A stretch of 44,081 nucleotides of DNA. It comes from Pseudobacteriovorax sp. GTDB taxonomy: Bacteria; Bdellovibrionota_B; Oligoflexia; Oligoflexales; Oligoflexaceae. The position numbers were made by a program, and so were the translations under genes. Within the stretch, counting starts at the first letter, position 1; each line of letters begins with the position of its first letter. Positions 1,787 to 41,078 of this stretch are shown in pieces. The DNA is taken from contig JABSRP010000053.1 of assembly GCA_013215145.1 (NCBI GenBank), forward strand, positions 1 to 44,081, read 5' to 3'. The notes under the pieces are model-generated. The model was not told the DNA's origin. It ran no database searches and saw only the letters and a program-made list of their open reading frames with translations.

Positions 1787-2086
1787 ATGAGTTTTGAAAT
1801 GGTAGTGGGATTGAATGTAAAAGATGATGCCTTATATGCTTCATACAGGGATGCAATGACCCCCATTTTAGTTAAGTTTGGTGGTGGATTTCGATATGAT
1901 TTTGTAGTCTCACAGGTTTTAAAAAATGATGAAAGAAGACCTATCAATCGAGTTTTTACAATTCACTTCGAAAACAAGGACAGCATGGAAAAATTTTTCT
2001 CAGATCCAGAATACGTTAGTGCAAAAGAAATGTTCTTCGAGAAGTCAGTCGGAGATACCACCATCATTTCGCAGTACGAAAGATAG
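1787..2086 (+). CDS. DUF1330 family protein (Dabb-like, ~99 aa)
   Basis: The length and pattern (KFGGGF ... RVFTIHFENKDSMEKFFSDPEY) match the DUF1330 family. A GGAG sits 8 nt upstream of the ATG. Confidence 0.55.
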   Translation: MSFEMVVGLNVKDDALYASYRDAMTPILVKFGGGFRYDFVVSQVLKNDERRPINRVFTIHFENKDSMEKFFSDPEYVSAKEMFFEKSVGDTTIISQYER

Positions 2087-2198: not shown

Positions 2199-5100
2199 CT
2201 AACCTGCTTCGTCGAATTGATGTAAGTCAGATTTTGTCTTGGAAACCAAATCGCTGATCTCACCCGATAGTTTTGTAGACCGACCTGCTAGCTGCTTAAC
2301 TTCAGAAGCTACTACAGCAAACCCTTTACCAGCTTCCCCGGCTCGTGCAGCTTCAATGGTTGCATTTAAAGCCAATAGGTTCGTTTGACCTGCTACCTTG
2401 ACAATTGATTTCGAGGATTTTTCGACGTTTTCTAACACGTCGCTGACTATTCTTCGCGACTCGATGATGGCTAAATTTTTTTCCGTTTGATCATTGAAAA
2501 TCCCGATCACATAGGCTAGTTCACCATAACCATCTGGTATAGCCTGCAAGGTTCCTGTTGCATAAACTGTTTCATTATCACCACAGGAAACTTTCAAATC
2601 AATTTTCTGACTTTTGCCTTGAATGGCATGTTCCCATTGTTTCTTATCAAAGACTTGGGAAGCGTTTAAAATGGGTTCTGACATGTGATCGCTAGAGATT
2701 TTGAATGTTTCCTTGGCTAATTGGTTGCTTCTCCTCAGTTTTCCAGAAATATCCCACTCCATAACTAGGCTTGAATTTTCAATAGACTCTATTTTCTTGC
2801 TTGATTCAATCGACAAGTTTTTAGTTGATGAAATATTAGCCTGTATCGAAATAAATCTTTCAACGTCACCGTGCTGGTTTAAAATAGGATTAACAGATAA
2901 TGAAATCCAATAGGCTTCCTTACTTTTAGTGTAATTTAGAATCTCCGTATAGAAAGGTTTTTTATTTTCCAAATTCGCTCTAATATCACTAATTGTATTT
3001 TTATCTGTCAAAGGACCTTGGAGTAGAGTTCCAGGCTTATTGCCCTTAGCATCCTCGAAAGTATAACCGGTTAATTTAGTAAAACCAGGATTGACATATT
3101 CAATCTGACCTTTTGGATCTGTTATCACAACACTATTGTCCGTCTCGTTGGCTACGAGCGATAGAATTTCAATTTTCTCTCTCTCTAAAATTTGCTGTGT
3201 TATGTCAACAGCATATTTTACAACTTTGAATGGCTTGCCAGAGGCGTCGTTTATTGGATTATAGGTTGCTTGAATCCAGACCTTTTTTCCATGATTTCCA
3301 ACGCGTTCATATTCCCCCTCTTGGAAATGACCCTCCTTTAGATTATTCCAAAACTCTCTATATTCTCTTGAATTTGCATAATCAGGAGTCGCAAAGATTC
3401 TATGATGCTTGCCTTTGATTTCATCTAGTCTGTACCCCATACAAGCTAAAAAGTTTTCATTGGCATCAAGTATATTTCCCTCGAGGTCAAATTGGATCAC
3501 AGCTTGGGATTTTCCTATCGCTTCAATCTGTCCCTCATAATCAGCACTTTTTAACTTATCATTGGTAATATCTGTTGCGTATTTAACAACTTTAAAGGGT
3601 TTACCTGATGGGTCACAAATAGGATTGTATGTGGCTCGAATCCAAACGCTTTCGCCATTTTTTCTAACCCTTTCAAATTCACCTTCGTGGTAATGCCCAG
3701 TTTTCAATTTTTCCCAAAATTCTTTATATTTCGTAGAATTTGCATAATCTGCTTTAGCAAAGATTTTGTGATGACGTCCTTTAATCTCACCTAATTGGTA
3801 ACCCATGCAAGTTAGAAAATTGTCATTTGCTTCAAGTATATTTCCTTCGAGGTCAAATTGGATCACAGCTTGGGATTTTCCTATCGCTTCAATCTGTCCC
3901 TCATAATCAGCACTTTTTAACTTATCATTGGTAATATCTGTTGCGTATTTAACAACTTTAAAGGGTTTACCTGATGGGTCACAAATAGGATTGTATGTGG
4001 CTCGAATCCAAACGCTTTCGCCATTTTTTCTAACCCTTTCAAATTCACCTTCGTGGTAATGCCCAGTTTTCAATTTTTCCCAAAATTCTTTATATTTCGT
4101 AGAATTTGCATAATCTGCTTTAGCAAAGATTTTGTGATGACGTCCTTTAATCTCACCTAATTGGTAACCCATGCAAGTTAGAAAATTGTCATTTGCTTCA
4201 AGTATATTTCCTTCGAGGTCAAATTGGATCACAGCTTGGGATTTTCCTATCGCTTCAATCTGTCCCTCATAATCAGCACTTTTTAACTTATCATTGGTAA
4301 TATCTGTTGCGTATTTAACAACTTTAAAGGGTTTACCTGATGGGTCACAAATAGGATTGTATGTGGCTCGAATCCAAACGCTTTCGCCATTTTTTCTAAC
4401 CCTTTCAAATTCACCTTCGTGGTAATGCCCAGTTTTCAATTTTTCCCAAAATTCTTTATATTTCGTAGAATTTGCATAATCTGCTTTAGCAAAGATTTTG
4501 TGATGACGTCCTTTAATCTCACCTAATTGGTAACCCATGCAAGTTAGAAAATTGTCATTTGCTTCAAGTATATTTCCTTCGAGGTCAAATTGGATCACAG
4601 CTTGGGATTTTCCTATCGCTTCAATCTGTCCCTCATAATCAGCACTTTTTAACTTATCATTGGTAATATCTGTTGCGTATTTAACAACTTTAAAGGGTTT
4701 ACCTGATGGGTCACAAATAGGATTGTATGTGGCTCGAATCCAAACGCTTTCGCCATTTTTTCTAACCCTTTCAAATTCACCTTCGTGGTAATGCCCAGTT
4801 TTCAATTTTTCCCAAAATTCTTTATATTTCCTAGAGTTTGCATAATCCGCTTTAGCAAAGATTTTGTGATGACGTCCTTTAATCTCATCTAATTGGTAAC
4901 CCATGCAAGTTAAAAAATTGTCATTTGCTTCAAGTATATTGCCTTCGAGATCAAATTGAATCACAGCCTGAGATTTTCCAATGGCCTCGATTTGCCCTTC
5001 GTTGTCTGCCCGACGTTTTTTTTCCTCGGTGATATCAGTCGCATATTTTACTACCTTGTAAGGCTTTCCGGAGGCATCTTTGATGGGGTTATAGGTTGCC

Positions 5101-5756
5101 TGTATCCAAATGCTTTCGCCATTTTTACCGACTCGTTCAAATTCTCCTTCGTAATAGGTACCTGATTTGAGATTACGCCAAAAATCTTGATACTCTGGAG
5201 ATCTAGCATAGTCTGGTTTTGCAAAGATTTTATGATGCTTACCCTTTATTTCGTCAATTGTAAAACCTACGGTCTTCAAAAAATTCTCGTTTGCATCCAA
5301 GATAATTCCATCAAGATTAAATTGAATCACTGCCTGAGACTTTCCTATAGCCTGGATTTGTCCCTCGAAATCGGCATTTTGCATCTTGTTTTTTGTAATG
5401 TCAGTAGCAATTTTTACAATCTTGTAAGGCTTCCCCAAATCGTCAAAAATAGGGTTATAACTAGCTCGAATCCAAACGCTTTGACCACTTTTTGAAAAGC
5501 GCTCAAACTCTCCTTCTTGGTATTTCCCGCTTTTTAGAATTTTCCAGAAGTTTTTATATTCTTCTGAATTGCGGTATTTTTCATTAACAAACATACTATG
5601 ATGCTTCCCTTTTATCTCCTCTAAGCTGAATTCAACAGTTGTCAAAAAGTTCTCGTTCGCATCTAAAATATTCCCATCTAAATCAAACTGGATGACAGCA
5701 GACGATTTGATAACTGCTTCAAGAATTGCCTTAATATCATTTGAATTAAAATCCAT
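2199..5756 (-). CDS. Soluble chemoreceptor-like protein of 1185 aa. It has at least 9 tandem PAS domains, 7 of them a 122-aa unit, followed by a short MCP signalling-domain fragment
   Basis: A 122-aa PAS unit (…[22 protein letters not shown]…GRHHKIF…[28 protein letters not shown]) recurs 7 times and is followed by 2 further PAS-like modules. The C-terminus contains the canonical MCP hairpin-tip motif [35 protein letters not shown]. No hydrophobic TM segment is present. Confidence 0.85.
3481..4945. repeat. 366-bp tandem repeat array inside the PAS-MCP gene. Four units begin at 3481, 3847, 4213 and 4579, and 3481-~4827 is 100% identical between units
   Basis: Direct comparison of the four stretches shows identical nucleotides over about 1.35 kb. 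The flanking units, down to ~3230 and up to ~5700, are progressively diverged copies of the same 366-bp/122-aa PAS module. Confidence 0.9.
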
Positions 5757-9899: not shown

Positions 9900-10934
9900 T
9901 TAGTTTCTACTGAAGAACTCATCAAAGACCTCATCACTCCAGTAAGCGATGCCTTCGGCTTGATTGGGGGAGTGCCATGATTCTTCGGATTTATGGCTTG
10001 GATTGACACAAGCTACGGCTAGAAATAGTAGGCAGAGTGAGGCAAGTAAAAGACTTCGGTTGTTTGGACGTGTGTCTTTGAACGCTTCGATACGACTTCT
10101 CAGTTCACTTTTTCCCAGCTGGTGCCCTACAGTCAGCGGATTTAGCGAACCTTGTAAAAGGAGCTGGCAGTTTAATAGGGTAGCAGCGTATTTCTTACGT
10201 ATTGTTTTGCCCAAGCAAACCTGTCGATCGCAGCTTATTTCCATGGATTTGTTTAGTTGTTTAGCTAGAAAAATCAAAAATGGAGAGAACCATAAAACAC
10301 ACTTTAGTACTTGCATATAGGCATTGAGCTGAATATCTCTCCGTTTAATATGGACATTCTCATGCTCTAGGACTAATGCTAGCCCTTCGTCATCTAAACT
10401 CTTCGTCAGTATTTGAGGAATGAAAATTCTTGGACTAAAGACTCCGTACGACATGGGAGATAGGTTTGATTTATGGGTGTATACTGGGATCCCCTTAAAC
10501 TCGAATGCGCAGTGGGATGAAGCCTCTAGCTGTCGCATACGATTAAGGGCAAATACTAATTTCATTAGTAAGATGGATAGAATAATCGCATAGATTCCCC
10601 AGACGTAGATAAACATGGAGATTGTTGTCGGTTTCACTTCCCTTGACAATAACTTTGGCTCCATGATCTCTTCCATTGTACTAAAGATTAGTGAAGGATG
10701 ATCCTTATTTGGGGTTCTGAAGGTTGGGGTCACAAAATCTTCTGTATCAGCTATTTGAGATATCTTCGATGTTGGGAAATCAAAACTAGGAATAAAAATC
10801 AGCAGAGGTAATGCTAGTAAACTGATTCTCAAGTAATGAAACAAACCATGGGCCGCTACTCTCCCTCGCAAGAAAAACCAACCTACACAAATGAGAAAGG
10901 GATAGATAAAGGCATAAAGGAAAAAAATCATCAA
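9900..10934 (-). CDS. BlaR1/MecR1-type M56 family membrane metalloprotease signal transducer. It lacks the C-terminal beta-lactam sensor domain
   Basis: N-terminal TM helices are followed by the M56 signature SPMSYGVFSPRIFIP…LVLEHENVHIKRRD (an HExxH zinc motif) and MEISCDRQV. After a final TM segment only about 40 residues remain. Confidence 0.85.
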   Translation of the reverse strand: MMIFFLYAFIYPFLICVGWFFLRGRVAAHGLFHYLRISLLALPLLIFIPSFDFPTSKISQIADTEDFVTPTFRTPNKDHPSLIFSTMEEIMEPKLLSREVKPTTISMFIYVWGIYAIILSILLMKLVFALNRMRQLEASSHCAFEFKGIPVYTHKSNLSPMSYGVFSPRIFIPQILTKSLDDEGLALVLEHENVHIKRRDIQLNAYMQVLKCVLWFSPFLIFLAKQLNKSMEISCDRQVCLGKTIRKKYAATLLNCQLLLQGSLNPLTVGHQLGKSELRSRIEAFKDTRPNNRSLLLASLCLLFLAVACVNPSHKSEESWHSPNQAEGIAYWSDEVFDEFFSRN

Positions 10935-11302
10935 TCTAACTCACCTAGAAGTTGACGAATGCGCTCGATTTCATCCGATGAAAGCTTCTGATTCTCGATC
11001 AAATTCAATGCAAGATCAAAAGCCTTCCCCTCATAGACATCTTCAATGAGATTTTCGGCTACAGAATTTTGATAGCTAAGACGGTCAATGCGAGCGGTAA
11101 AACGATGCTCTTTCTCTGAATTGTCCTTTTTTAGATAGTTTTTCTTGACAAGATTATTCACTGCAGTTTGTAGCGAAGTATAGGCAGGAGGCGGATCTAG
11201 CATATTCAAGATATCACGAACACTGGCTCGATCATGATCCCAAAAGAGCTTCATAATTTTTAATTCATGGTCCGTAAGATTTTTATTTATGGGGCGACTC
11301 AT
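10931..11302 (-). CDS. BlaI/MecI/CopY-family winged-helix transcriptional repressor
   Basis: The protein is 123 aa. Its N-terminus LTDHELKIMKLFWDHDRASVRDILNML…YTSLQTAVNNLVKKNYL fits the penicillinase-repressor fold. Its stop overlaps the start of the M56 gene by 4 nt. Confidence 0.8.
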   Translation of the reverse strand: MSRPINKNLTDHELKIMKLFWDHDRASVRDILNMLDPPPAYTSLQTAVNNLVKKNYLKKDNSEKEHRFTARIDRLSYQNSVAENLIEDVYEGKAFDLALNLIENQKLSSDEIERIRQLLGELD

Positions 11303-25902: not shown

Positions 25903-28761
25903 CTAGGAGGCTTTTGAGTCCGAGGCGATGGCTAGAGAAAGCCTTGTAAATTCTACTATATGATTGGGTAGGAAAATCTGAAAGGAAAAAGCGTAAGACC
26001 TACTATCTTTACTAGATTCGGCAAGACTCACATCGACTGATCCTCCCTCAACTTCGATAAACTCTTTCACAACATCTAAACCGACTCCACGTCCCGATAA
26101 ATCCGAGACTTCGCTCTTAGTAGAGAACCCCGGGATAAAAATAGTCCTTGCTATCTCAAGTGGAGAAGAGAGATCAGCATGCCTCCGCTCGGACATCTTG
26201 GAGGTCCTTTCTTTGAGTTTGTGCAAGTCAAGACCTGAGCCATCGTCGGCATAGGTAAGCTGGATTCCGTTGTTAGACATGGTGACCGAGATTTCGATAT
26301 TTCCCATCTCGTCTTTCCCTTTTTCTTTTCTGATATTCGGCGGCTCAATGCCGTGGTCCATACTATTGCGGAATAAATGGACAAAAACGTTTTGGATTAG
26401 CGTTGCGTACTCCATTTTAAGACTAACCTCATCACCTGAGTAGGTGATATTGGGCATTGGTTTGTCTAGGTTTTGGGCTATAGATTCGAGAGACTTTACA
26501 ATATCTGTGAGAATATCTTCCAAGGATAGCTTGGTCATTTGAAATAATTTATCCCTCACGAGAAATAAATCTTGTTGGCTCTTTTCGGATTGAACGCTGT
26601 TGCTACTCTGATCGATCATCTGAAAGATTTCGGAGATTGCCAATTTCGACACCTGAATGCTGTTATCGTCGGACTGTGATTGATGGAGAGCCTCCTCTTT
26701 CAATCGCTGGTATTCATCTATTTCCTCGGATACTGCCTGGACTTCTGACAACATTTGCTCTCTATCCCATAGGGACGGTGTATCCCTAATTTGGGAAAAT
26801 CTGTTTTCTGCATGGTGAGTTTTTTCGGCCAAAAAGCTGAACTTGTAAGTGCGAGCTAACCCCTTCAATGTATGCATGTTTCTAAAAATAAGGTTAATTC
26901 TTGACTCCCTATCCAGCCCTTCATTTTGAATAGAGTCGCGACATGAAGCCGTTAACTTGCGGCTGGTTTGGATGATATCTCGAAATTTTTCTGGCTTTAC
27001 TTCGATGATCTCGTGGAGGTATTTTAGCTCGCTGGTTACTTTTTCGTTCTTTGCCCTTAATCGTCTGATTTCCGTGGAATCTCTGACTGCAACGATGATT
27101 TTTTCAATACTGGAATCATGTTCATCGATAATATAAGACCAATCGATATCGAGGTATTTTGCCTCATCACCACTCCCGATCGAAATTTCCTTGGGTAAAA
27201 GATGTTCGTTGGCCTCAAAGACAATAGCATCTTGTCCCACAACCGACTGAAGGGTAGCTTCCACCTGGTTCTTTTCATTGGTATCCAAACTACTATGGGC
27301 AAAGAGTAGATCCCTTAACAAAACTTTAGGCGATAGACGACCTGCTAAAATCACCTCAAGCTCACTAGAGTATTCAGGATCAATAGTGAGGTTATCATTT
27401 GAAATCGAAAAAATTCCTTGCCTGAGGGAGTCTAGAACGGATCTAATATGCCTAGTTTGGCTTGCTACTTTTCTATCTAAATTTTCAATATGTTCATTTA
27501 ATTCTTTGTTCAATCCTTTGATGGTGGTCTCATCTTTTTCAACCTGAGCAAAAGCATTAGAAAAGCGCATGGCTATATTACTAGCTTGAAAAAGGATAAG
27601 TAGCATGAGCCCGTAAGATAGCAACCAAGATCCTTGGATATATGCCATAGAAACCAGAATATCGTATATTATACTAAAGAAAAAAATTGCTGCTCCAGCA
27701 ATAGCTACCGAAGCCCCAATTTCTTTTTTGTAGGCAGCGCGGAACATTGTTGTGAATGAATAGATGACGCTGAGAATAATAATGAGATGAAAAAATGGCA
27801 GAAATTTCCCATAGGTTTCTTGCTCTCCTATAAGAACTATCATACAGCCGATGATACCTGCAAACCAAATAACCTTTCCACCCCGTGGAAAATATTTTGT
27901 GTAGCTGCTTTTCACGAAGGACATAAATAAGGGTCCACCAATGACGATGGCCAAAAATTCCAATTTTTTAAACCATTCGCTATCGATATTAGGAAAGTTA
28001 CGAATTAAAAGGTTACCATCTGCGGTGCTGATGCGCCTCGATACAATTGCTATGCAAAACAACCCAAAGTATAAGGGAGCCTTACTCTTGGATCGTATCA
28101 TAAATAGTATTAAATGGTATATTCCCATGATGGCAATAAAGCCAATTACGATGCCATTGAAATTGATTTCGTCGATGAACTCGTCAAAGAAAAAAGAGTT
28201 TTTGTGTAGAGACATAGGAGTCCAAAGCCCACCCGAATTGTGGTGAAAGGCAGAAACTTCAAGCCAAATCTTCGCAATACCCTTTTTATCGGACCTAATG
28301 GGGACGTAGGTCGCTCCTCGTCCAGCGGCAGATGTGGCTTTGCTTTTTCCCACCACGCCGCTGGAATCAATATACTTCCCATTGACGAAGATCCTCCAAG
28401 ATGATCCCAGCTCGGGAACGCGTAGGTAAATAAGCCCTCTTGGTTTTTTTAGGTCTAGAAATAGTTCGTAGGTCGCGAAACCTTGTTTCTTTATAAAATT
28501 GTGTTGTTTTGAGAGTTTGTCCCACTTAGTAGGTATACGGACTTTGAGAGACTTTTGAATTTTCCGTGATTCACGGTTTAACTCCGATAGAAAAATTCCC
28601 CAGTAGAAATTCCATTCTGCATCGAGAGAGACTTTGCTTTCAGATATGTCTCCTATCGCGACTTGGTGTCTGGTTGATTTAGCCCAAGAATTGCTAACAG
28701 ACCCTATAGCCAAGGTTAGAGTGAGTAAAAATACTGTCTTAGTTATATTCGGCAATCGCAT
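25903..28761 (-). CDS. 7TMR-DISM receptor fused to a CheA-type histidine kinase module (HPt plus P4 ATPase) of 952 aa. It has no P3/P5 domains and no receiver
   Basis: A signal peptide is followed by a periplasmic 7TMR-DISMED2-like domain (…LRVPELGSSWRIFVNGKYI…) and 7 TM helices. A ~250-aa helical linker follows. The HPt motif is IFRNMHTLKGLARTYKF. The CheA-type catalytic domain reads HLFRNSMDHGIE…, ADDGSGLD and SGRGVGLDVVKEFIEVEGGSVDV. The ORF ends about 40 aa later. Confidence 0.8.
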   Translation of the reverse strand: MRLPNITKTVFLLTLTLAIGSVSNSWAKSTRHQVAIGDISESKVSLDAEWNFYWGIFLSELNRESRKIQKSLKVRIPTKWDKLSKQHNFIKKQGFATYELFLDLKKPRGLIYLRVPELGSSWRIFVNGKYIDSSGVVGKSKATSAAGRGATYVPIRSDKKGIAKIWLEVSAFHHNSGGLWTPMSLHKNSFFFDEFIDEINFNGIVIGFIAIMGIYHLILFMIRSKSKAPLYFGLFCIAIVSRRISTADGNLLIRNFPNIDSEWFKKLEFLAIVIGGPLFMSFVKSSYTKYFPRGGKVIWFAGIIGCMIVLIGEQETYGKFLPFFHLIIILSVIYSFTTMFRAAYKKEIGASVAIAGAAIFFFSIIYDILVSMAYIQGSWLLSYGLMLLILFQASNIAMRFSNAFAQVEKDETTIKGLNKELNEHIENLDRKVASQTRHIRSVLDSLRQGIFSISNDNLTIDPEYSSELEVILAGRLSPKVLLRDLLFAHSSLDTNEKNQVEATLQSVVGQDAIVFEANEHLLPKEISIGSGDEAKYLDIDWSYIIDEHDSSIEKIIVAVRDSTEIRRLRAKNEKVTSELKYLHEIIEVKPEKFRDIIQTSRKLTASCRDSIQNEGLDRESRINLIFRNMHTLKGLARTYKFSFLAEKTHHAENRFSQIRDTPSLWDREQMLSEVQAVSEEIDEYQRLKEEALHQSQSDDNSIQVSKLAISEIFQMIDQSSNSVQSEKSQQDLFLVRDKLFQMTKLSLEDILTDIVKSLESIAQNLDKPMPNITYSGDEVSLKMEYATLIQNVFVHLFRNSMDHGIEPPNIRKEKGKDEMGNIEISVTMSNNGIQLTYADDGSGLDLHKLKERTSKMSERRHADLSSPLEIARTIFIPGFSTKSEVSDLSGRGVGLDVVKEFIEVEGGSVDVSLAESSKDSRSYAFSFQIFLPNHIVEFTRLSLAIASDSKAS

Positions 28762-34137: not shown

Positions 34138-36132
34138 ATGGAAAATGTTTTTATTAATTCAGGAATTGTCATTTTTGCAAGTGTCAGCTTGTTTATCTTG
34201 GGAATCGTATTTTTCATAACGCGTTTCCTGAGAAAGGTTGAACCAGGAAAAGCTCTGATTATTATTAATCCGTTCAAAAAGAATATGGCTGTTAGCTTCA
34301 CAGGAGGCGTCGTAATCCCTGTCATCCATCGTGCTGAGGTTATGGATATTTCGACCAAACAAGTTGTGGTTGAAAGGCGTGGAAAAGATGGTCTGATATG
34401 CAAAGATAATATTAGAGCTGATATTTCAGTTAACTTCTATATCAGAGTCAATAATACAGTAGAAGACGTGCGCAACGTTGCTCAAAGTATTGGAGTTGAT
34501 CGAGCCTCCCAGAAAGAAACCTTGGATGAACTATTTCAGGCCAAATTTTCGGAAGCTTTGAAAACAGTAGGCAAGAAGACCGATTTCGAAGAGCTTTTTC
34601 AGGAACGCGCTTTGTTCAAAGAAAAAATTGTTCAGGAGATAGGGCAAAACCTCAATGGCTACAGTCTGGAAGATACAGCCATTGACTATCTCGAACAAAC
34701 AGGTCTCGAATTTTTTGAGCCAAACAACATTCAAGATGCAGCCGGTATAAAAAAGATTATTGATATCACATTAGAGTTGAAAGAGCAGAAAGAAAAGCGT
34801 GAAACGGAAGCAACGGAGCGCATTCTTGAGCTAGACAGACAGAGGGCTGAGGCTAAGGCGCGTCAGGAAGCCGAAATCGCCATTCTCCAGGCGAGAGAAA
34901 ATGCTGAGCAGGAAAAAATCATCCAAGAAGAAAGGCAAAAAGCCGAACTTGCAAAGATCCGCGTTGACGAGGAATTACGAATTGCAGCGGAAAATATGGA
35001 ACGTCAGGTTGAAGTTGCTAAAAAAAGTAAGGAACGCACGGTTGCTGTTGAGACAGAGCGAGTTGAAAAAGAACGAGATCTTGAAAAGACTGACCGCGAA
35101 AAACTAGTTGCGCTTGCAGATATCGAAAAAGTGAGAGCGGTTGAAGATCAGAAGAAAACGATTCAAGAAATCATTAGACAGCGTGTGGCACTAGAACGAT
35201 CAGTGGCTGAGGAAGAAGAAAAGACTAAGGATACGGTAGCATTGGCTACTGCTAACAGAAACAAAACAGTACAATTAACAGCGGCGGAGGCCAATGCTGA
35301 AGAAAAGTTAGTAACCGAAATTAAATCTGCTGAAGCCAAAGAAAAAGCAGCAAAATATGCAGCTAATGAAATGGCAATACGCGCGGAAGCTGAGCTTGCT
35401 ACATCTAATCAGATCGCCGACGCAAAAAAAATCCTAGCCGAAGGGATCATTGCCGAATCTGCTGCGGTAGGTTTGTCTGAGGTGAAAGTAAAAGAAGCTG
35501 ATGCTGATGCTGTTCGGAAGCTGGGAGAGGCCGAAGCTCATGCCTTGACCTTCAAGTCTAGAGCTGAAGCCGAGGCCATTCGGGAAAAAGGAACCTCTGA
35601 AGCGCAAATTATTGCTGATAAGGCCAAGGCTATGCATGATCTAGACGAGGTGGGAAGAGAGCACGAAGAGTTTAAAGCCAGGCTTAATGTCCAGCAAGAA
35701 CTGGCTCTTGAAAAATTGACTGTTAGTCGCGATATAGCAAAAAATAATGCTCAGGTGATTAGTAAGGCTCTAGAAAATGCAAAGATTGACATCGTAGGAG
35801 GTGACCAAATATTCTTCGATAAACTAATTTCGGCAGTGAGTAATAGCAAGTCAATTGAAGCTCGTTTTCCAGAAGATGGAGTCTTAAATCAGGTCAAGGA
35901 TGTTTTTTTATCTGATGGAAACGGTGAGTTGATGACCAAGCTAAGAGGAGTCATTGATACTCTTGGTGTTGGGTCAAAAGCAATGAAAGATTATAGTATC
36001 GCGGGACTACTTAATAAATTGCATAGTGAGACAAAGGATTCGTCGATTCAGGGTGTTATATCTGGACTTCTTAAAGATGCTGAGTCCGCTGGGATCAATG
36101 ATCAGTCTTCGCAAATATTGTTTAATAAATAG
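34138..36132 (+). CDS. Flotillin-family SPFH/band-7 protein (664 aa, YqiK-like)
   Basis: An N-terminal TM helix is followed by an SPFH domain and a long Glu/Ala/Lys/Arg-rich coiled-coil (the flotillin-type EA repeat region). It is tightly linked to the NfeD-like gene upstream. Confidence 0.8.
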   Translation: MENVFINSGIVIFASVSLFILGIVFFITRFLRKVEPGKALIIINPFKKNMAVSFTGGVVIPVIHRAEVMDISTKQVVVERRGKDGLICKDNIRADISVNFYIRVNNTVEDVRNVAQSIGVDRASQKETLDELFQAKFSEALKTVGKKTDFEELFQERALFKEKIVQEIGQNLNGYSLEDTAIDYLEQTGLEFFEPNNIQDAAGIKKIIDITLELKEQKEKRETEATERILELDRQRAEAKARQEAEIAILQARENAEQEKIIQEERQKAELAKIRVDEELRIAAENMERQVEVAKKSKERTVAVETERVEKERDLEKTDREKLVALADIEKVRAVEDQKKTIQEIIRQRVALERSVAEEEEKTKDTVALATANRNKTVQLTAAEANAEEKLVTEIKSAEAKEKAAKYAANEMAIRAEAELATSNQIADAKKILAEGIIAESAAVGLSEVKVKEADADAVRKLGEAEAHALTFKSRAEAEAIREKGTSEAQIIADKAKAMHDLDEVGREHEEFKARLNVQQELALEKLTVSRDIAKNNAQVISKALENAKIDIVGGDQIFFDKLISAVSNSKSIEARFPEDGVLNQVKDVFLSDGNGELMTKLRGVIDTLGVGSKAMKDYSIAGLLNKLHSETKDSSIQGVISGLLKDAESAGINDQSSQILFNK

Positions 36133-36140
36133 GTATAGTA

Positions 36141-39100
36141 GTGACTATCAGTAATACGCTTACAGCTACGGGCGGCAACTTTGATATCATTAGAAAAAGA
36201 CTGATAACACAAAGCAAAGCCCTTGAGACGATACTAACGGATCTCAATCTAAGACGTAAAGATACCTTTGGAACTATCGAAAACAAGATTCTTTCGTCGG
36301 ATCGAGTTAATACACCTATCCCCTGTGTGGCTCGCGATATGGTAGCTCAGGGGGATACGTTACTTATGGCGTTTGAGGTCCATTTTGGATTAAAATCTTC
36401 GGTAAATGTTTCTGATATTTTTAGAACCTATCAATATATAGACGATAGATTTCAAGAGGTCGAAGCGACACTTATTGATGATGAACAGTTCTATCGCGAT
36501 CTTTCCGATTTGACTAAATTCTACAAAGATTGCCGATTTGCTAGATTTTTGAAGAAAAAAACATTTTTGTACATGATCTTTCATGTGGGGCGCGGTAGAG
36601 ATAAAAAAGTCTTCAAATGGGCCATTAATCCCGATGATAAACTAACTTATGTTGATAATAGATCAGATTTTGAAGTCGCTGATCCACCCCAATATAGTTT
36701 TGATTGGGAACGTATCACGCGCGATGATCATGTGTATATTGGTGAACCTCATATTAACGTTTCAGATCGACTGTTTGTTGACTGCTTGGGTGGATCGCTT
36801 ACGATAAGGATCGAGGATAACACCGAAATCGGTCATACGATTCTTCAAGAATCTGTTGATGAAACGGATCAAACCTTAGACGATGCGGTTATCGAATACG
36901 CCGTATTGGATCATATTATTATTCTCAAGATACTTCCCTACCGAGAGCAAGATGCCCGATACTTTATATATAACGATAAAAACGAAACCATTAAAAAGGT
37001 AGAGGATCTAAAAAACTGTGGAATCGCACTGCCTGAAAACGATGGACTGATGTTTCCTAACGGTTATTATCTAAGGAATGGTACTTTCCGTTCGTTTTCG
37101 CTAGAACGAAGCGATATGAAGTTCCAACAGTGTTTAGAAAGCCTGAATGGAGAAGATCTACTTTATGCCTTTCATGACCACGAGATGGGCGAATATATCT
37201 TAATCCAATATAACCGTATTGAAAAAACGGTAGGTCAACCTATTACCTGTCATGGATATGCTATATTTGGTAACGGAAAGATGGTGGTTTTTGGGGCTTC
37301 GCAAGAACCTATGAAGAGTCATAGTATTCAAACATGGAGCACATCGTTTATCGAAGATGCTAGCGTCTTTGAAGCTTCTGATGAATCTTCTATGGCGCGC
37401 ATAGGTAATAAAACATTGGTTGATGGTTTTTCTGACCTGTGGGAGATAACCAATTTAGCTAAAAAAGAAGAAAATACCTTAGCGGAATATAATGAATTAT
37501 TGAGGTTCATCCGAGAGTCTCAGGATAGGCATTATTGGTTTAGTGAAGAAGAGTTTTCCCAAATAAAACAAAAATTAGCTGATCTTCTGTCCACTGCTAC
37601 TTCTGCCGTCGATGAATTTGAAAAGGTGATTAGCGCAAAGAAAAAAAGTCATAAAGATTTTCAAGAGGCTGAGATCAATGTACAAAATCTTATTGATGCC
37701 ATAAAGATAGAGGGATTCGAAACTATTGATCCCTTCATTGAAAAGATCACCGATCTTAGATTGCAATTGGGTGAGGTTCTCTCACTGGCGGAAAATCAGT
37801 TTGCAAATGCCGAAGGGTTGGAAGTTCTTGAGGGACGACTTAAAGCAGAGCTGGATCAGCTAACGAGCTCTTGTAGTCGATTTCTTATGAGCCAAAAAGC
37901 GGTTCAGCCATTTCATGATCGTTTGGAGCAGATCTTATTGTCTATGGAGTCCGTAGAACGCTCAAAAGATCTAGAAAATGTTGATGCTGAAATCGCGAAA
38001 TATACTCTTCACCTAAATACATTAACGGATCTTATAAACGATTTGGCTACTTCCGATCCGAAGGATTCGGTTCAAATCATTGAACAATTATCTCAACTTA
38101 TTGCCGGGTCAAATCAAGTTAAAGCAAAATTCAAATCTATTCGAACCAACCTGCTTCACGAGGAGTTAGGAACCGAGTACCAAGCGCAAATGACTCTTCT
38201 GTCGCAATCGGTTTCTAGTTACCTGGAGCAAGTTGAATCTCTAGAAGATTGTGATAACTTTCTTGATCGAGTTCTCGGCAATCTAGAATCACTAGAGGTT
38301 AAGTTTTCCGAATTTCCAGACTATCTAAATGATCTTGCTGAAAAACGTGATGAATATTTTTCCGTGTTTCAGTCAAAAAGGGTTCAAATACAAGAAGCCA
38401 GCAATAAAAAAATAATGGCAATGATGGACTCTGGAGCGCGTCTTTTGAAAAGTATAAAAAAGCGCTCGATCCACCTCGAAACGTGTCAACAGATTTCTAC
38501 TTTTTTCGTCACCGACAGTATGGTTACCAGATTACAAACAGTTGCTGATGAGATGGCTAAACTAGGTGAGACGGTGAAAGCTGAGGATTTAAGGGGGCAG
38601 CTTAAAAAAATTAGGCAAGATGCCTTAAGGCAGCTGAAAGATAAACAGGATTTATTTCAACTTGGTGAAAATATCATAACTTTGGGTCAGCATAGTTTTC
38701 AAGTGAGTGACCTGTCGGTGGATCTCTCCATTATTGAGCGTAGCGATGGACCCAATATTCATATATCTAGTACTGATTTTTTTCAGGCTATTCCAGAAGG
38801 AAGTTTGAACTCTTCAAAAACTCTGTCTCAACAAACAGTCGTCAGTGAGACAAAAAAAGTATATCGATCGGTTTATCTCGCTTATTATTATGTGCAGAGT
38901 CTATATGCTGGCGAGAGGCCTTTAAATTTAAGTCAATTGCTCTCTAACTCAAGTAGTCTAGACGGTGTAGAGGATGAAGCCCTCGAAAAAGATATCCTTT
39001 CTTTTATGCAGAGTAGGTTAGACGAAGGCTATGAAAAAGGCGTACACGATAGAGATGGCTATAGAATTATCGGTCGTATACTTCCTATTCTCGCTCATGA

Positions 39101-41078
39101 CCCTGTACAGAGATTTCATCCTGTAACACGAGCGCTAGGATTTTTATTCTCTAAATATGAGGAAAATGACAGTTTAAGCGTCATTCTTAAAAAAATCCAG
39201 TCTTGGTCTAAAATACAAAAACAAAATCTCGCTCGTAATCCAAAAAACGACTATATTGAAGAACTTCGTTGCGAAATCAAAAACTTTCTTTCGGCATCTA
39301 ATTTGGATGATTATGTAGGCTATGATCATAAAGTAGCTCACTACCTAGCACATCAATTTTTGCTACAGGAAGATCACCGGGACCACTATTTTGCTAAAGA
39401 GTCCTACGAATTATATAATGAGTTTACCGAGTGGATCAAGCAAGGTGATCTGAAGGATAAAATCCTTTCACTGGTGGATGGGGTTGATCACTTAGGTGAT
39501 AAAATTGCGATATTATTTGATTGGTTGCAACAATTTCAAAAGACATTTAACAGTGGAAAAGACGACTTTGTACTGGAATCAGTGATTATAGCTTTGGAAT
39601 TACAATTTACGGCAGCAGATAATCAAAATTTCCAGATGAAAAGGCTAGTCAACAGTAGCATATTTAGTGTAGATGGACTCATTGGAACTCACGAAAACCT
39701 TGATCAAGGAAAACTTAATACTTATGTATTTGAATTATTTTCTCAGGTGGAAACCTATTTAGAAGATGGAAGAGACGCGTTTCTAAACTTCCAGATCGAA
39801 AAGCAAAATTTAATCAAACAATATCGGCAATCGTTTAAACTTGATCAGCTGCAACCGAAAATTCTTGGATCGTTTGTTCGCAATCAGTTAATTCAGGAAT
39901 CATACCTGCCAAAAATTGGTGAAAACTTTGCAAAACAAATCGGAAGCTATGGAAATGATAAGCGTGTTGATCTGATGGGTCTGCTCCTTTTGATCTCACC
40001 CCCAGGCTACGGGAAGACCACATTAATGGAATATGTGGCTCAGAGGCTGGGTCTGATATTTTTAAAAATTAACGGCCCAGCGATTGGTCACAGTGTAACA
40101 TCTTTGGACCCACAGGAGGCACCAAATGCGACGGCTCGGCTAGAAATTGAGCGTCTTAACTTTGGTTTCGAACTTGGGAATAATGTTATGATTTATATCG
40201 ATGATATCCAACACTGCCACTCTGAGTTTCTTCAAAAATTTATTTCATTATGTGATGGCCAGAGGAAAATCGAGGGAGTTTGGCAAGGTAGTCCGAAGAC
40301 CTATGACTTTCGAGGTAAGCGTATTGCAGTGGTCATGGCAGGAAACCCATATACCGAGACGGGTGAGGTCTTTCGTATCCCAGATATGTTATCAAACCGA
40401 GCCGATATATATAATTTAGGTGATATGCTAAGTGGTTCGGAGGATGCGTTTCTACGATCTTATATAGAAAACTGCCTTACCTCCCACCCTGTACTTGCGA
40501 AATTGACAAATATTGACCAAACAGAGACTCAAAAGCTCATCGAACTGACGGAAGAAAATCATGAGGACTTAGGGACTCTTGTAAAACGTTCCGTGTCTGA
40601 AGGTCATCAAGACTTAGCCAATATGCTAGTGAAGTGCGTATTCGTACGAAATATTGTTCAGACTGTTAATCAAAGCTACATAGCCTCGGCAGCACAGGAT
40701 GACTCATTTCGGACCGAGCCAGGATTTCTGTTGCAAGGTAGTTATCGGGATATGAATAAAATCATGGGAGGGATTCAACCTGCTATGAATGAGTCGGAAC
40801 TTTTGGATCGTGTGATCGATCATTATCGTTTTGAGTCGCAGTTGCTTACCAGTTCTGCAGAGTTCAATTTTTTACGATTCCTTGAACTCATCGATCGCTT
40901 GGACGATCGAGAGAAAGTCAGAATCGAAGAGATACGTGGCGAGTTTAGAAAAACTCAACGTCTATCTTCTGCAGGCAAAGATGGAATAGGGAATATTATA
41001 GGCCAATTGGATCAATTTAACGTAAAATTTGATGAACTAGTTAACGTCTATCGCAGTCGGATAAAACAACATGACTGA
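36141..41078 (+). CDS. Giant 1645-aa protein with a C-terminal MoxR/AAA_5-type AAA+ ATPase module. The N-terminal ~1270 residues have no recognisable domains
   Basis: Walker A is LLLISPPGYGKTTLMEY (aa ~1285). Walker B is VMIYIDDIQH. Sensor-1 is VVMAGNPY. The central region is long and helical, coiled-coil-like. GTG start 8 nt after the flotillin stop. Confidence 0.7.
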   Translation: MTISNTLTATGGNFDIIRKRLITQSKALETILTDLNLRRKDTFGTIENKILSSDRVNTPIPCVARDMVAQGDTLLMAFEVHFGLKSSVNVSDIFRTYQYIDDRFQEVEATLIDDEQFYRDLSDLTKFYKDCRFARFLKKKTFLYMIFHVGRGRDKKVFKWAINPDDKLTYVDNRSDFEVADPPQYSFDWERITRDDHVYIGEPHINVSDRLFVDCLGGSLTIRIEDNTEIGHTILQESVDETDQTLDDAVIEYAVLDHIIILKILPYREQDARYFIYNDKNETIKKVEDLKNCGIALPENDGLMFPNGYYLRNGTFRSFSLERSDMKFQQCLESLNGEDLLYAFHDHEMGEYILIQYNRIEKTVGQPITCHGYAIFGNGKMVVFGASQEPMKSHSIQTWSTSFIEDASVFEASDESSMARIGNKTLVDGFSDLWEITNLAKKEENTLAEYNELLRFIRESQDRHYWFSEEEFSQIKQKLADLLSTATSAVDEFEKVISAKKKSHKDFQEAEINVQNLIDAIKIEGFETIDPFIEKITDLRLQLGEVLSLAENQFANAEGLEVLEGRLKAELDQLTSSCSRFLMSQKAVQPFHDRLEQILLSMESVERSKDLENVDAEIAKYTLHLNTLTDLINDLATSDPKDSVQIIEQLSQLIAGSNQVKAKFKSIRTNLLHEELGTEYQAQMTLLSQSVSSYLEQVESLEDCDNFLDRVLGNLESLEVKFSEFPDYLNDLAEKRDEYFSVFQSKRVQIQEASNKKIMAMMDSGARLLKSIKKRSIHLETCQQISTFFVTDSMVTRLQTVADEMAKLGETVKAEDLRGQLKKIRQDALRQLKDKQDLFQLGENIITLGQHSFQVSDLSVDLSIIERSDGPNIHISSTDFFQAIPEGSLNSSKTLSQQTVVSETKKVYRSVYLAYYYVQSLYAGERPLNLSQLLSNSSSLDGVEDEALEKDILSFMQSRLDEGYEKGVHDRDGYRIIGRILPILAHDPVQRFHPVTRALGFLFSKYEENDSLSVILKKIQSWSKIQKQNLARNPKNDYIEELRCEIKNFLSASNLDDYVGYDHKVAHYLAHQFLLQEDHRDHYFAKESYELYNEFTEWIKQGDLKDKILSLVDGVDHLGDKIAILFDWLQQFQKTFNSGKDDFVLESVIIALELQFTAADNQNFQMKRLVNSSIFSVDGLIGTHENLDQGKLNTYVFELFSQVETYLEDGRDAFLNFQIEKQNLIKQYRQSFKLDQLQPKILGSFVRNQLIQESYLPKIGENFAKQIGSYGNDKRVDLMGLLLLISPPGYGKTTLMEYVAQRLGLIFLKINGPAIGHSVTSLDPQEAPNATARLEIERLNFGFELGNNVMIYIDDIQHCHSEFLQKFISLCDGQRKIEGVWQGSPKTYDFRGKRIAVVMAGNPYTETGEVFRIPDMLSNRADIYNLGDMLSGSEDAFLRSYIENCLTSHPVLAKLTNIDQTETQKLIELTEENHEDLGTLVKRSVSEGHQDLANMLVKCVFVRNIVQTVNQSYIASAAQDDSFRTEPGFLLQGSYRDMNKIMGGIQPAMNESELLDRVIDHYRFESQLLTSSAEFNFLRFLELIDRLDDREKVRIEEIRGEFRKTQRLSSAGKDGIGNIIGQLDQFNVKFDELVNVYRSRIKQHD

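Follow-up and report, generated by a model that had tools for sequence, protein, structure and literature searches.

A soluble PAS-array protein of Pseudobacteriovorax sp. ending in a short, conserved chemoreceptor hairpin

In the Escherichia coli chemoreceptor Tsr, the 'hairpin bundle and tip' has three parts before it: a methylation-helix bundle, a flexible bundle and a glycine hinge. It makes up the distal third of a 36H domain, and its input reaches it by way of all three (PMC11571029). Twelve length classes of methyl-accepting chemotaxis proteins (MCPs) have been catalogued, spanning 64H to 24H (MiST 3.0, PMC6943060). Shorter pieces have been made in the laboratory, where receptor foldons of 71 residues bind CheA and CheW and modulate the kinase; they either activate or inhibit it, and some 36 residues make up the actual interaction region (bioRxiv 10.1101/2020.03.27.011866). 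The gene analysed here lies on the minus strand at positions 2199-5756 of a contig of Pseudobacteriovorax sp. (GenBank assembly GCA_013215145.1, contig JABSRP010000053.1), all 44,081 nucleotides of which are referred to below as the window. It encodes a soluble protein of 1185 amino acids (aa) in which an array of PAS domains runs into an MCP hairpin of about 95 residues, termed here a mini-hairpin. It is very likely that this module is a genuine, conserved minimal hairpin.

The closest solved sequences to the mini-hairpin are engineered fragments of Thermotoga maritima Tm14 (TM0014), 3UR1_C (85 aa) and 4JPB_B (90 aa), which we take to be the receptor pieces of CheA-P4P5/CheW/receptor crystal structures. 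These are its best PDB sequence matches, having a tip of 16 residues in common with it, and they cover the same receptor segment at near-equal length (85-90 aa). The Tm14 fragments and the foldons are laboratory cuts of longer receptors, whereas the receptor described here is natural, conserved and equipped with its own sensor domains; the Tar and Tm14 foldons, in addition, depend on an added trimerisation motif. The tip bundle of Tsr (6S1K) has the same tip motif as this receptor, in which a PAS domain sits where the Tsr hinge would be. A short signalling domain is also found in the 24H class, the shortest of the twelve (PMC6943060). Three short-hairpin receptors (L004, L005 and L054), which are not formally assigned to 24H, have a C-terminal arm of 84-89 aa, about twice the 44 aa of the mini-hairpin, and no more than about 350 aa before the tip.

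The receptor also resembles Aer, the soluble Aer2, AerC and McpS, in all of which cytoplasmic signals sensed by PAS domains reach an MCP tip. These proteins have full-length kinase-control domains of 36H-40H, usually with HAMP, and Aer is membrane-anchored. Pseudomonas aeruginosa BdlA is alike by architecture only, having tandem PAS domains in a cytoplasmic protein with a C-terminal MCP-type domain. The function of BdlA is not classical chemotaxis, and it is known to work with DipA and RbdA and through ClpD-dependent cleavage (PMC13584717). No gene for a cyclic di-GMP (c-di-GMP) phosphodiesterase partner of the DipA or RbdA type is adjacent to the receptor gene. The Magnetospirillum MCP-like protein Amb0994 was considered as a possible precedent.

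The features of the locus, in window coordinates, are as follows.

2199-5756, minus strand: complete gene for the soluble 1185-aa protein, PAS array plus mini-MCP hairpin (open reading frame (ORF) listing, Pfam)
3183-5756, minus strand: seven PAS_3-type domains, aa 1-858, with a period of 122 aa, the central copies being a near-identical tandem repeat (Pfam)
2802-3179, minus strand: LOV-like PAS domain, aa 860-985 (AlphaFold 2 (AF2), Foldseek)
2490-2774, minus strand: last PAS-like domain, divergent, aa ~995-1089 (AF2)
2337-2486, minus strand: descending (N-terminal) hairpin helix, aa 1091-1140, equivalent to Tsr 341-390 (AF2, BLASTP)
2277-2381, minus strand: conserved MCP tip and protein-interaction motif, aa 1126-1160 (sequence, alignments with Tm14 and Tsr)
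2334-2336, minus strand: tip residue E1141 (sequence)
2202-2333, minus strand: ascending (C-terminal) hairpin helix, aa 1142-1185, 44 aa, equivalent to Tsr 392-435
2199-2201, minus strand: TAG stop codon, genuine (assemblies L085-L089, stops of homologues)
1787-2086, plus strand: convergent DUF1330 gene, the boundary of the locus and outside the receptor (Pfam, E=7.8e-8)

Pfam reports eight PAS matches in the protein plus MCPsignal, and the PAS-type domains total nine. The PAS_3 match has E=2e-123 over eight matched stretches. MCPsignal (PF00015) is matched at aa 1105-1178 with 85.4 bits, the cut-off being 34.6 (E=5.6e-24), although the match covers only the central 74 of the 172 profile positions (29-102). 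With this score above the gathering threshold and the tip motif, the protein belongs to the MCP signalling-domain superfamily. Neither a transmembrane (TM) segment (Kyte-Doolittle, best 19-aa window 1.17) nor a signal peptide was found, which is consistent with a cytoplasmic receptor.

A first-pass annotation of this gene, made from the letters alone, had already recorded the absence of a TM segment and the presence of the conserved 35-residue MCP motif (aa 1126-1160) near the C-terminus, and both observations hold. It placed the end of the protein about 45 aa later, which is right when counted from the tip glutamate (44 aa) and wrong when counted from the end of the motif that it quoted (25 aa). 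The protein ends in ...HQFDEAG followed by TAG, and translation of all three minus-strand frames downstream of the stop gave no continuation of the domain. This also agrees with the annotation, as does the DUF1330 gene on the opposite strand, which is separated from the receptor gene by 112 bp. Scans for promoters and terminators at both gene ends found nothing. An exact-sequence lookup of the whole receptor protein returned no match, likely because the number of PAS repeats varies among assemblies.

The two arms of the hairpin are of similar length, 50 aa on the N-terminal side (1091-1140) and 44 aa on the C-terminal side (1142-1185), and hydrophobic core positions persist out to both ends. 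The last beta-strand of the PAS domain stops at about aa 1089 and the hairpin helix begins at 1091. An AF2 model of the last 326 aa (mean predicted local distance difference test (pLDDT) 85.7) has beta-strands (E138-230) and then a single helical element, 232-325. Because PAS and LOV matches swamped the Foldseek search of this model, a second model was built of the hairpin only, from a 25-sequence alignment (pLDDT 91.5, predicted template modelling score 0.72). All 15 Foldseek matches of the hairpin model at E<0.001 are MCP chains. The best PDB match is 6S1K_E, a 102-residue Tsr fragment in the E. coli core signalling unit, with template modelling scores of 0.81/0.82 and a root mean square deviation of 1.0 Å across 88 columns at 40% identity. 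Further matches are Tsr 1QU7 (0.9 Å), Tm14 3G67, the HAMP-Tsr fusion 3ZX6 and the YfmS-CheW integrative model 9A72. Superposed on the hairpins of Tsr and Tm14, the AF2 hairpin deviates by 0.9-2.0 Å. Such fits would be impossible for a straight helix, and the model is therefore a hairpin. The C-terminus is thus predicted to be an antiparallel helical hairpin with the motif at its U-turn, as is characteristic of the MCP superfamily.

The position of this hairpin within a full-length receptor can be read from the alignment with E. coli Tsr (reference sequence from NC_000913.3), where BLASTP gives 47% identity over 75 aa without gaps and with a constant offset of 750. Receptor E1141 falls on Tsr E391, the start of the helix on Tsr G341, and the C-terminus on Tsr 435, four residues before the glycine-hinge residue G439. 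By sequence, the hairpin is the Tsr 341-435 segment, running from the glycine hinge (G340/G341, G439) to the tip. The reading of the domain as truncated just past the tip is accordingly wrong: the protein does end 44 aa after the tip, but the N-terminal side, which the first-pass annotation had overlooked, is equally short, so there is no one-sided cut.

Evidence that the short end is genuine comes from other assemblies and from homologues. With the DUF1330 gene as an anchor, six independent contigs were retrieved from different samples, and the arrangement of DUF1330 and receptor genes recurs in all six. Five of these assemblies (L085-L089) are 100% identical to the window without gaps over 1787-2900, stop codon included. 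The sixth contig (L090), which is 1.3 kb long, has five differences within its last 90 bp, one of which makes a stop codon; this was considered as evidence for a pseudogene and rejected, being judged contig-end noise. The first-pass annotation had suggested looking for a frameshift or sequencing error near the stop, and the five assemblies contain no indel there. It had also suggested aligning relatives to see whether their C-terminal helix is present, and what the homologues have is the same short C-terminus, an outcome that the annotation itself had named as refuting truncation.

The homologue search was made with the last 210 aa of the receptor. Fifteen homologues, among them proteins that bear the names of Skermanella aerolata and Methylobacterium iners, are colinear with the last 326 aa up to the C-terminus at 34-48% identity (10 or 11 of the 15 at 39-48%), and they end 0-10 residues from the position at which the receptor ends. 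Among the best 120 database matches, 20 stop 42-45 aa past the tip and 12 more stop 49-54 aa past it. In all, at least 20 homologues with 35-48% identity over the aligned part stop 42-45 aa past the tip, genes of Skermanella and Catenovulum isolates among them. An exhaustive search of 1.84 billion cluster representatives gave the same picture. Only single-stretch matches are informative in its ranking, and all ten of those in the top 150 end 43-45 aa past the tip, nine of them aligning nearly end to end with the query. Proteins with two signalling domains top this ranking because the scores of both matches sum. Many proteins of ~640 aa and ~870 aa (e.g. P0140, P0162 and P0126) are double signalling-domain receptors, with a pair of full tips separated by 300-440 aa.

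The range of lengths in which the same tip motif occurs was read from a scan covering one genome per species. Past the tip, canonical receptors have a further 120-240 aa, and the short-hairpin receptors L004, L005 and L054 have 84-89 aa. At three loci, on long contigs or in isolate genomes, L001, L002 and Catenovulum sediminis (D2; L003), there are 44-46 aa after the tip, and at each of these another gene lies immediately past the stop. In Catenovulum a 209-aa ORF, presumably rsmD, faces the receptor gene convergently at a distance of 46 bp from its stop, and the next ORFs resemble ftsY, ftsE and ftsX, all as recognised by their sequence. Databases label the mini-hairpin proteins plainly as 'methyl-accepting chemotaxis protein'.

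The most conserved part of the module is its tip, with which ordinary receptors touch the kinase CheA and the adaptor CheW. A stretch of 30 residues is invariant among members of the family that are otherwise 35-50% identical, and in two alignments (A1 and A2) there are 29-35 invariant columns, nearly all of them within the tip motif. An invariant tip surface implies the same conserved partners as those of canonical receptors. The parts used in adaptation are missing. The methylation consensus [ASTG][ASTG]xx[EQ][EQ]xx[ASTG][ASTG] has no match in the 1185 aa of the receptor, whereas in a control the same scan of Tsr gave four matches, each with a known methylation site (297, 304, 311 and 493). 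A flexible bundle and a glycine hinge are both absent from the receptor in the alignment with Tsr. Without a flexible bundle, methylation helices or a consensus site, there is no adaptation through CheR and CheB.

Arm length was compared with the published class list, rather than with class hidden Markov models, and by this measure the hairpin, with about 6-7 heptads per arm, is outside every listed class and short of the at least 12 heptads (~84 aa) per arm by which a class is recognised. The transmembrane topology with a periplasmic sensor that marks classes I-III is also absent, and it is not required of the cytoplasmic class IV. Though a member of the MCP signalling-domain superfamily, the receptor does not have the features that define canonical methyl-accepting receptors. 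The first-pass annotation had offered an unusual minimal cytoplasmic receptor as one of two readings, and this is the one that the evidence supports.

On the sensor side, the PAS_3 repeat motif recurs every 122 aa. At the nucleotide level, Tandem Repeats Finder reports 4.5 copies of a 366 bp period at 3348-4979, with 96% matches. The length of the gene differs among the assemblies, being 941 aa in L085 and broken in L086 and L087. The real number of PAS copies is therefore uncertain, or it varies from one population to another.

The LOV-like PAS domain is modelled with pLDDT >90 and has Foldseek matches to LOV domains at 30-33% identity; the NCBIfam model YtvA_fam scores 92.8 bits, below its cut-off of 250. 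The canonical LOV motif is GxNCRFLQ, with the adduct-forming cysteine. Within the corresponding ten-residue motif of the receptor, KPGTLLQG stands where LOV domains have NCRFLQG (alignment A1). The cysteine is thus absent, and the homologues in the same alignment keep the same cysteine-less form. The domain may be a flavin or redox sensor, or it may be a cofactor-less variant. Brucella LOV-HK (6PPS, 6PH4) is the best structural match to the tandem of LOV-like and PAS domains, and there too the PAS is joined to the output through a helical linker. The output of LOV-HK is a HisKA/HATPase kinase, whereas here it is an MCP tip, and the LOV-like domain of the receptor does not have the photoactive cysteine.

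The last PAS domain ends in an N-D-Q-T-E junction that runs directly into the hairpin helix. The aspartate of this junction (D230 of the 326-aa model) is invariant in 16 aligned sequences, and its spacing from the tip is constant in 11 of them. Five homologues (P0018, P0020, P0022, P0023 and P0024) have three additional N-arm residues and 5-10 additional C-terminal residues.

Probably the protein acts as a cytoplasmic receptor independent of methylation, its tip docking on CheW and the P5 domain of CheA. Two chains would come together in a short four-helix bundle, and the tip would dock on CheW and CheA P5 in the manner of ordinary receptor tips. The last PAS domain would be coupled to the descending helix through a DIT-like (D-x-T/S) helical junction of fixed length. 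Through it the PAS array (seven PAS_3 domains, the cysteine-less LOV-like domain and the divergent PAS) would act directly on the tip bundle, changing its packing or its dynamics. The outcome would be control of the kinase without methylation, with a redox, energy or small-ligand signal as the probable trigger. A PAS dimer, on the analogy of PAS-kinase linkers, would drive the tip bundle through a continuous helix. Dimers, trimers of dimers and binding to CheW and CheA-P5 are suggested by the invariant tip and by what the engineered fragments do. Coupling to CheA and CheW, considered alone, is only slightly favoured over its absence.

Size is no obstacle to this reading. The first-pass annotation had held that bundle formation and the binding of CheA and CheW call for about 100 further residues. 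Engineered fragments and foldons of 71-90 residues suffice, so this premise fails, and the natural hairpin (~95 residues) is longer than the foldon mimics. That a PAS domain can drive a receptor without adaptive methylation is described for E. coli Aer (PMC13232288).

Several points count against a methylation-independent receptor acting on CheA. No che or flagellar gene is found within the 44-kb window, and none is found beside six homologous or stand-alone mini-hairpin genes that were examined, although MCP genes are commonly orphans. The gene context yields no functional clue. A bundle of ~7 nm beneath nine PAS domains per chain would also be expected to crowd long receptors in a hexagonal array; mixed arrays seem unlikely, and separate complexes would be needed. 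Furthermore, BdlA demonstrates that PAS-PAS-MCP proteins can signal elsewhere (PMC13584717).

This last point leads to the alternative that survives best, in which the mini-hairpin works outside the Che system as an adaptor that binds other partners. In the manner of BdlA, it would pass a cytoplasmic signal on to enzymes such as c-di-GMP phosphodiesterases, or to a partner at the cytoskeleton or the cell pole, and would not control CheA. BdlA, a cytoplasmic 'chemotaxis transducer', activates the phosphodiesterases DipA and RbdA (PMC13584717). The lack of che genes near the receptor and the examined homologues suits such a role, as does the loss from the module of everything needed for adaptation. 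However, the invariant residues of the tip are those kept in canonical receptors, which favours the canonical partners, and no candidate for an alternative partner is encoded nearby. Even the polar localisation of BdlA itself needs CheA (PMC13584717). An adaptor role is rather unlikely.

A second alternative is that the protein is a decoy or modulator that binds CheW and CheA or the edges of arrays without signalling, so titrating the baseplate or tuning its assembly, with the PAS domains setting its availability. The engineered tip-only foldons that inhibit T. maritima CheA (bioRxiv 10.1101/2020.03.27.011866) would be a model for this, stand-alone mini-hairpins of ~120-180 aa with no sensor exist (P0033, P0092 and P0046), and the steric difficulty of fitting the protein into a regular array would also speak for it. 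Against this, the invariant junction aspartate and the set length from PAS to tip indicate selection for conformational coupling between sensor and tip, and a Tar foldon activates E. coli CheA, so that short hairpins can control the kinase (bioRxiv 10.1101/2020.03.27.011866). On balance a decoy is improbable.

That the gene is a recently truncated or mis-sequenced canonical receptor (a pseudogene, frameshift or assembly error), possibly non-signalling as the first-pass annotation had proposed, is hardly credible: the partial Pfam profile match and the differing assemblies of the repetitive PAS region might suggest it, but those assembly differences are restricted to the 366-bp repeats far upstream of the hairpin, the 3' end is identical in five assemblies with no indel and no continuation in any frame, dozens of homologues at 35-50% identity, isolate genomes included, share the stop position, and a one-sided truncation would not give arms of equal length, by which it is refuted.

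The hairpin is not confined to PAS proteins. Globin fusions are found with the globin at the C-terminus (P0029) or at the N-terminus (P0062), along with about 15 others with PF00042, and the occurrence of globin on either side suggests that the hairpin acts as a self-contained module. Stand-alone mini-hairpins of ~120-180 aa occur on long contigs (P0033, P0092 and P0044-P0048). In three of these (P0044, P0046 and P0048, the last named from Pelagibius), the hairpin is followed by a Pro/Ala-rich tail ending in a conserved GGV[TL]M, reminiscent of the tethered pentapeptide at the C-terminus of some canonical receptors. Other natural proteins carry mini-hairpins in tandem, two or three to a chain (P0009, P0010, P0012, P0122, P0121, P0135 and P0147). 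In a protein of 206 aa the two tips are ~100 aa apart, and P0121 has three units with an 81-aa period. Such tandem mini-hairpins could fold as single-chain four-helix bundles, like engineered single-chain receptor dimers. The hairpin of the receptor belongs to a distinct and recurrent family with PAS, globin, stand-alone and tandem forms.

It may tentatively be proposed, though the odds are somewhat against it, that mini-hairpins are a widespread, uncatalogued natural output class of about 13H, reaching from hinge to tip, which controls CheA without methylation adaptation and into which PAS and globin domains plug. If so, nature had already built the minimal receptor that structural biologists have engineered. 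No description of natural tip-only MCPs was found in the full-text literature searched, the coverage of which did not extend to the founding paper on length classes, so that there may be an earlier mention.

How changes in the conformation or dynamics of the tip switch CheA is still described as unresolved (PMC11571029). Studies of tip switching lean on receptors that are long and membrane-bound, or on artificial fragments. A small and tractable system is offered by a natural, soluble receptor in which a PAS domain is joined straight to a 95-residue tip without HAMP, methylation helices, flexible bundle or hinge. It opens the questions of what the minimal unit for kinase control is and how a sensor can drive the tip directly. 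For annotation, tip-only MCP matches should not be written off as fragments or pseudogenes. Receptor censuses built on the 24H-64H classes probably overlook mini-hairpins.

Elsewhere in the window, a 952-aa protein is encoded on the minus strand at 25903-28761, with a 7TMR-DISM membrane domain, Hpt and a CheA-type P4 (ATP-binding) domain, the last with E=5.6e-38 to NCBIfam CheA models. A CheW-like P5 domain is missing, so that the protein is a CheA-like kinase fused directly to a seven-transmembrane receptor. On the minus strand at 9900-11302, an M56 peptidase sensor of the BlaR1 type is paired with a BlaI/Penicillinase_R repressor, and a DUF4097 gene adjoins them. On the plus strand, 34138-41078 contains a Band_7/SPFH protein (664 aa), then a 1645-aa protein and then an overlapping 251-aa ORF. 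The 1645-aa protein combines DUF3686 ('ATPase involved in DNA repair') with DUF7902 and with AAA domains, and this Band_7/SPFH-DUF3686 gene set may be a conserved multi-gene system. The window has a GC content of 41% and matches metagenome contigs from samples BOEU19-1, WILS17-1 and SRR7648341. It also encodes an iron-containing alcohol dehydrogenase (Fe-ADH), the best homologue of which is only 60% identical, so that the collections searched contain no close relative of the source, and the Fe-ADH homologues come from mixed phyla.

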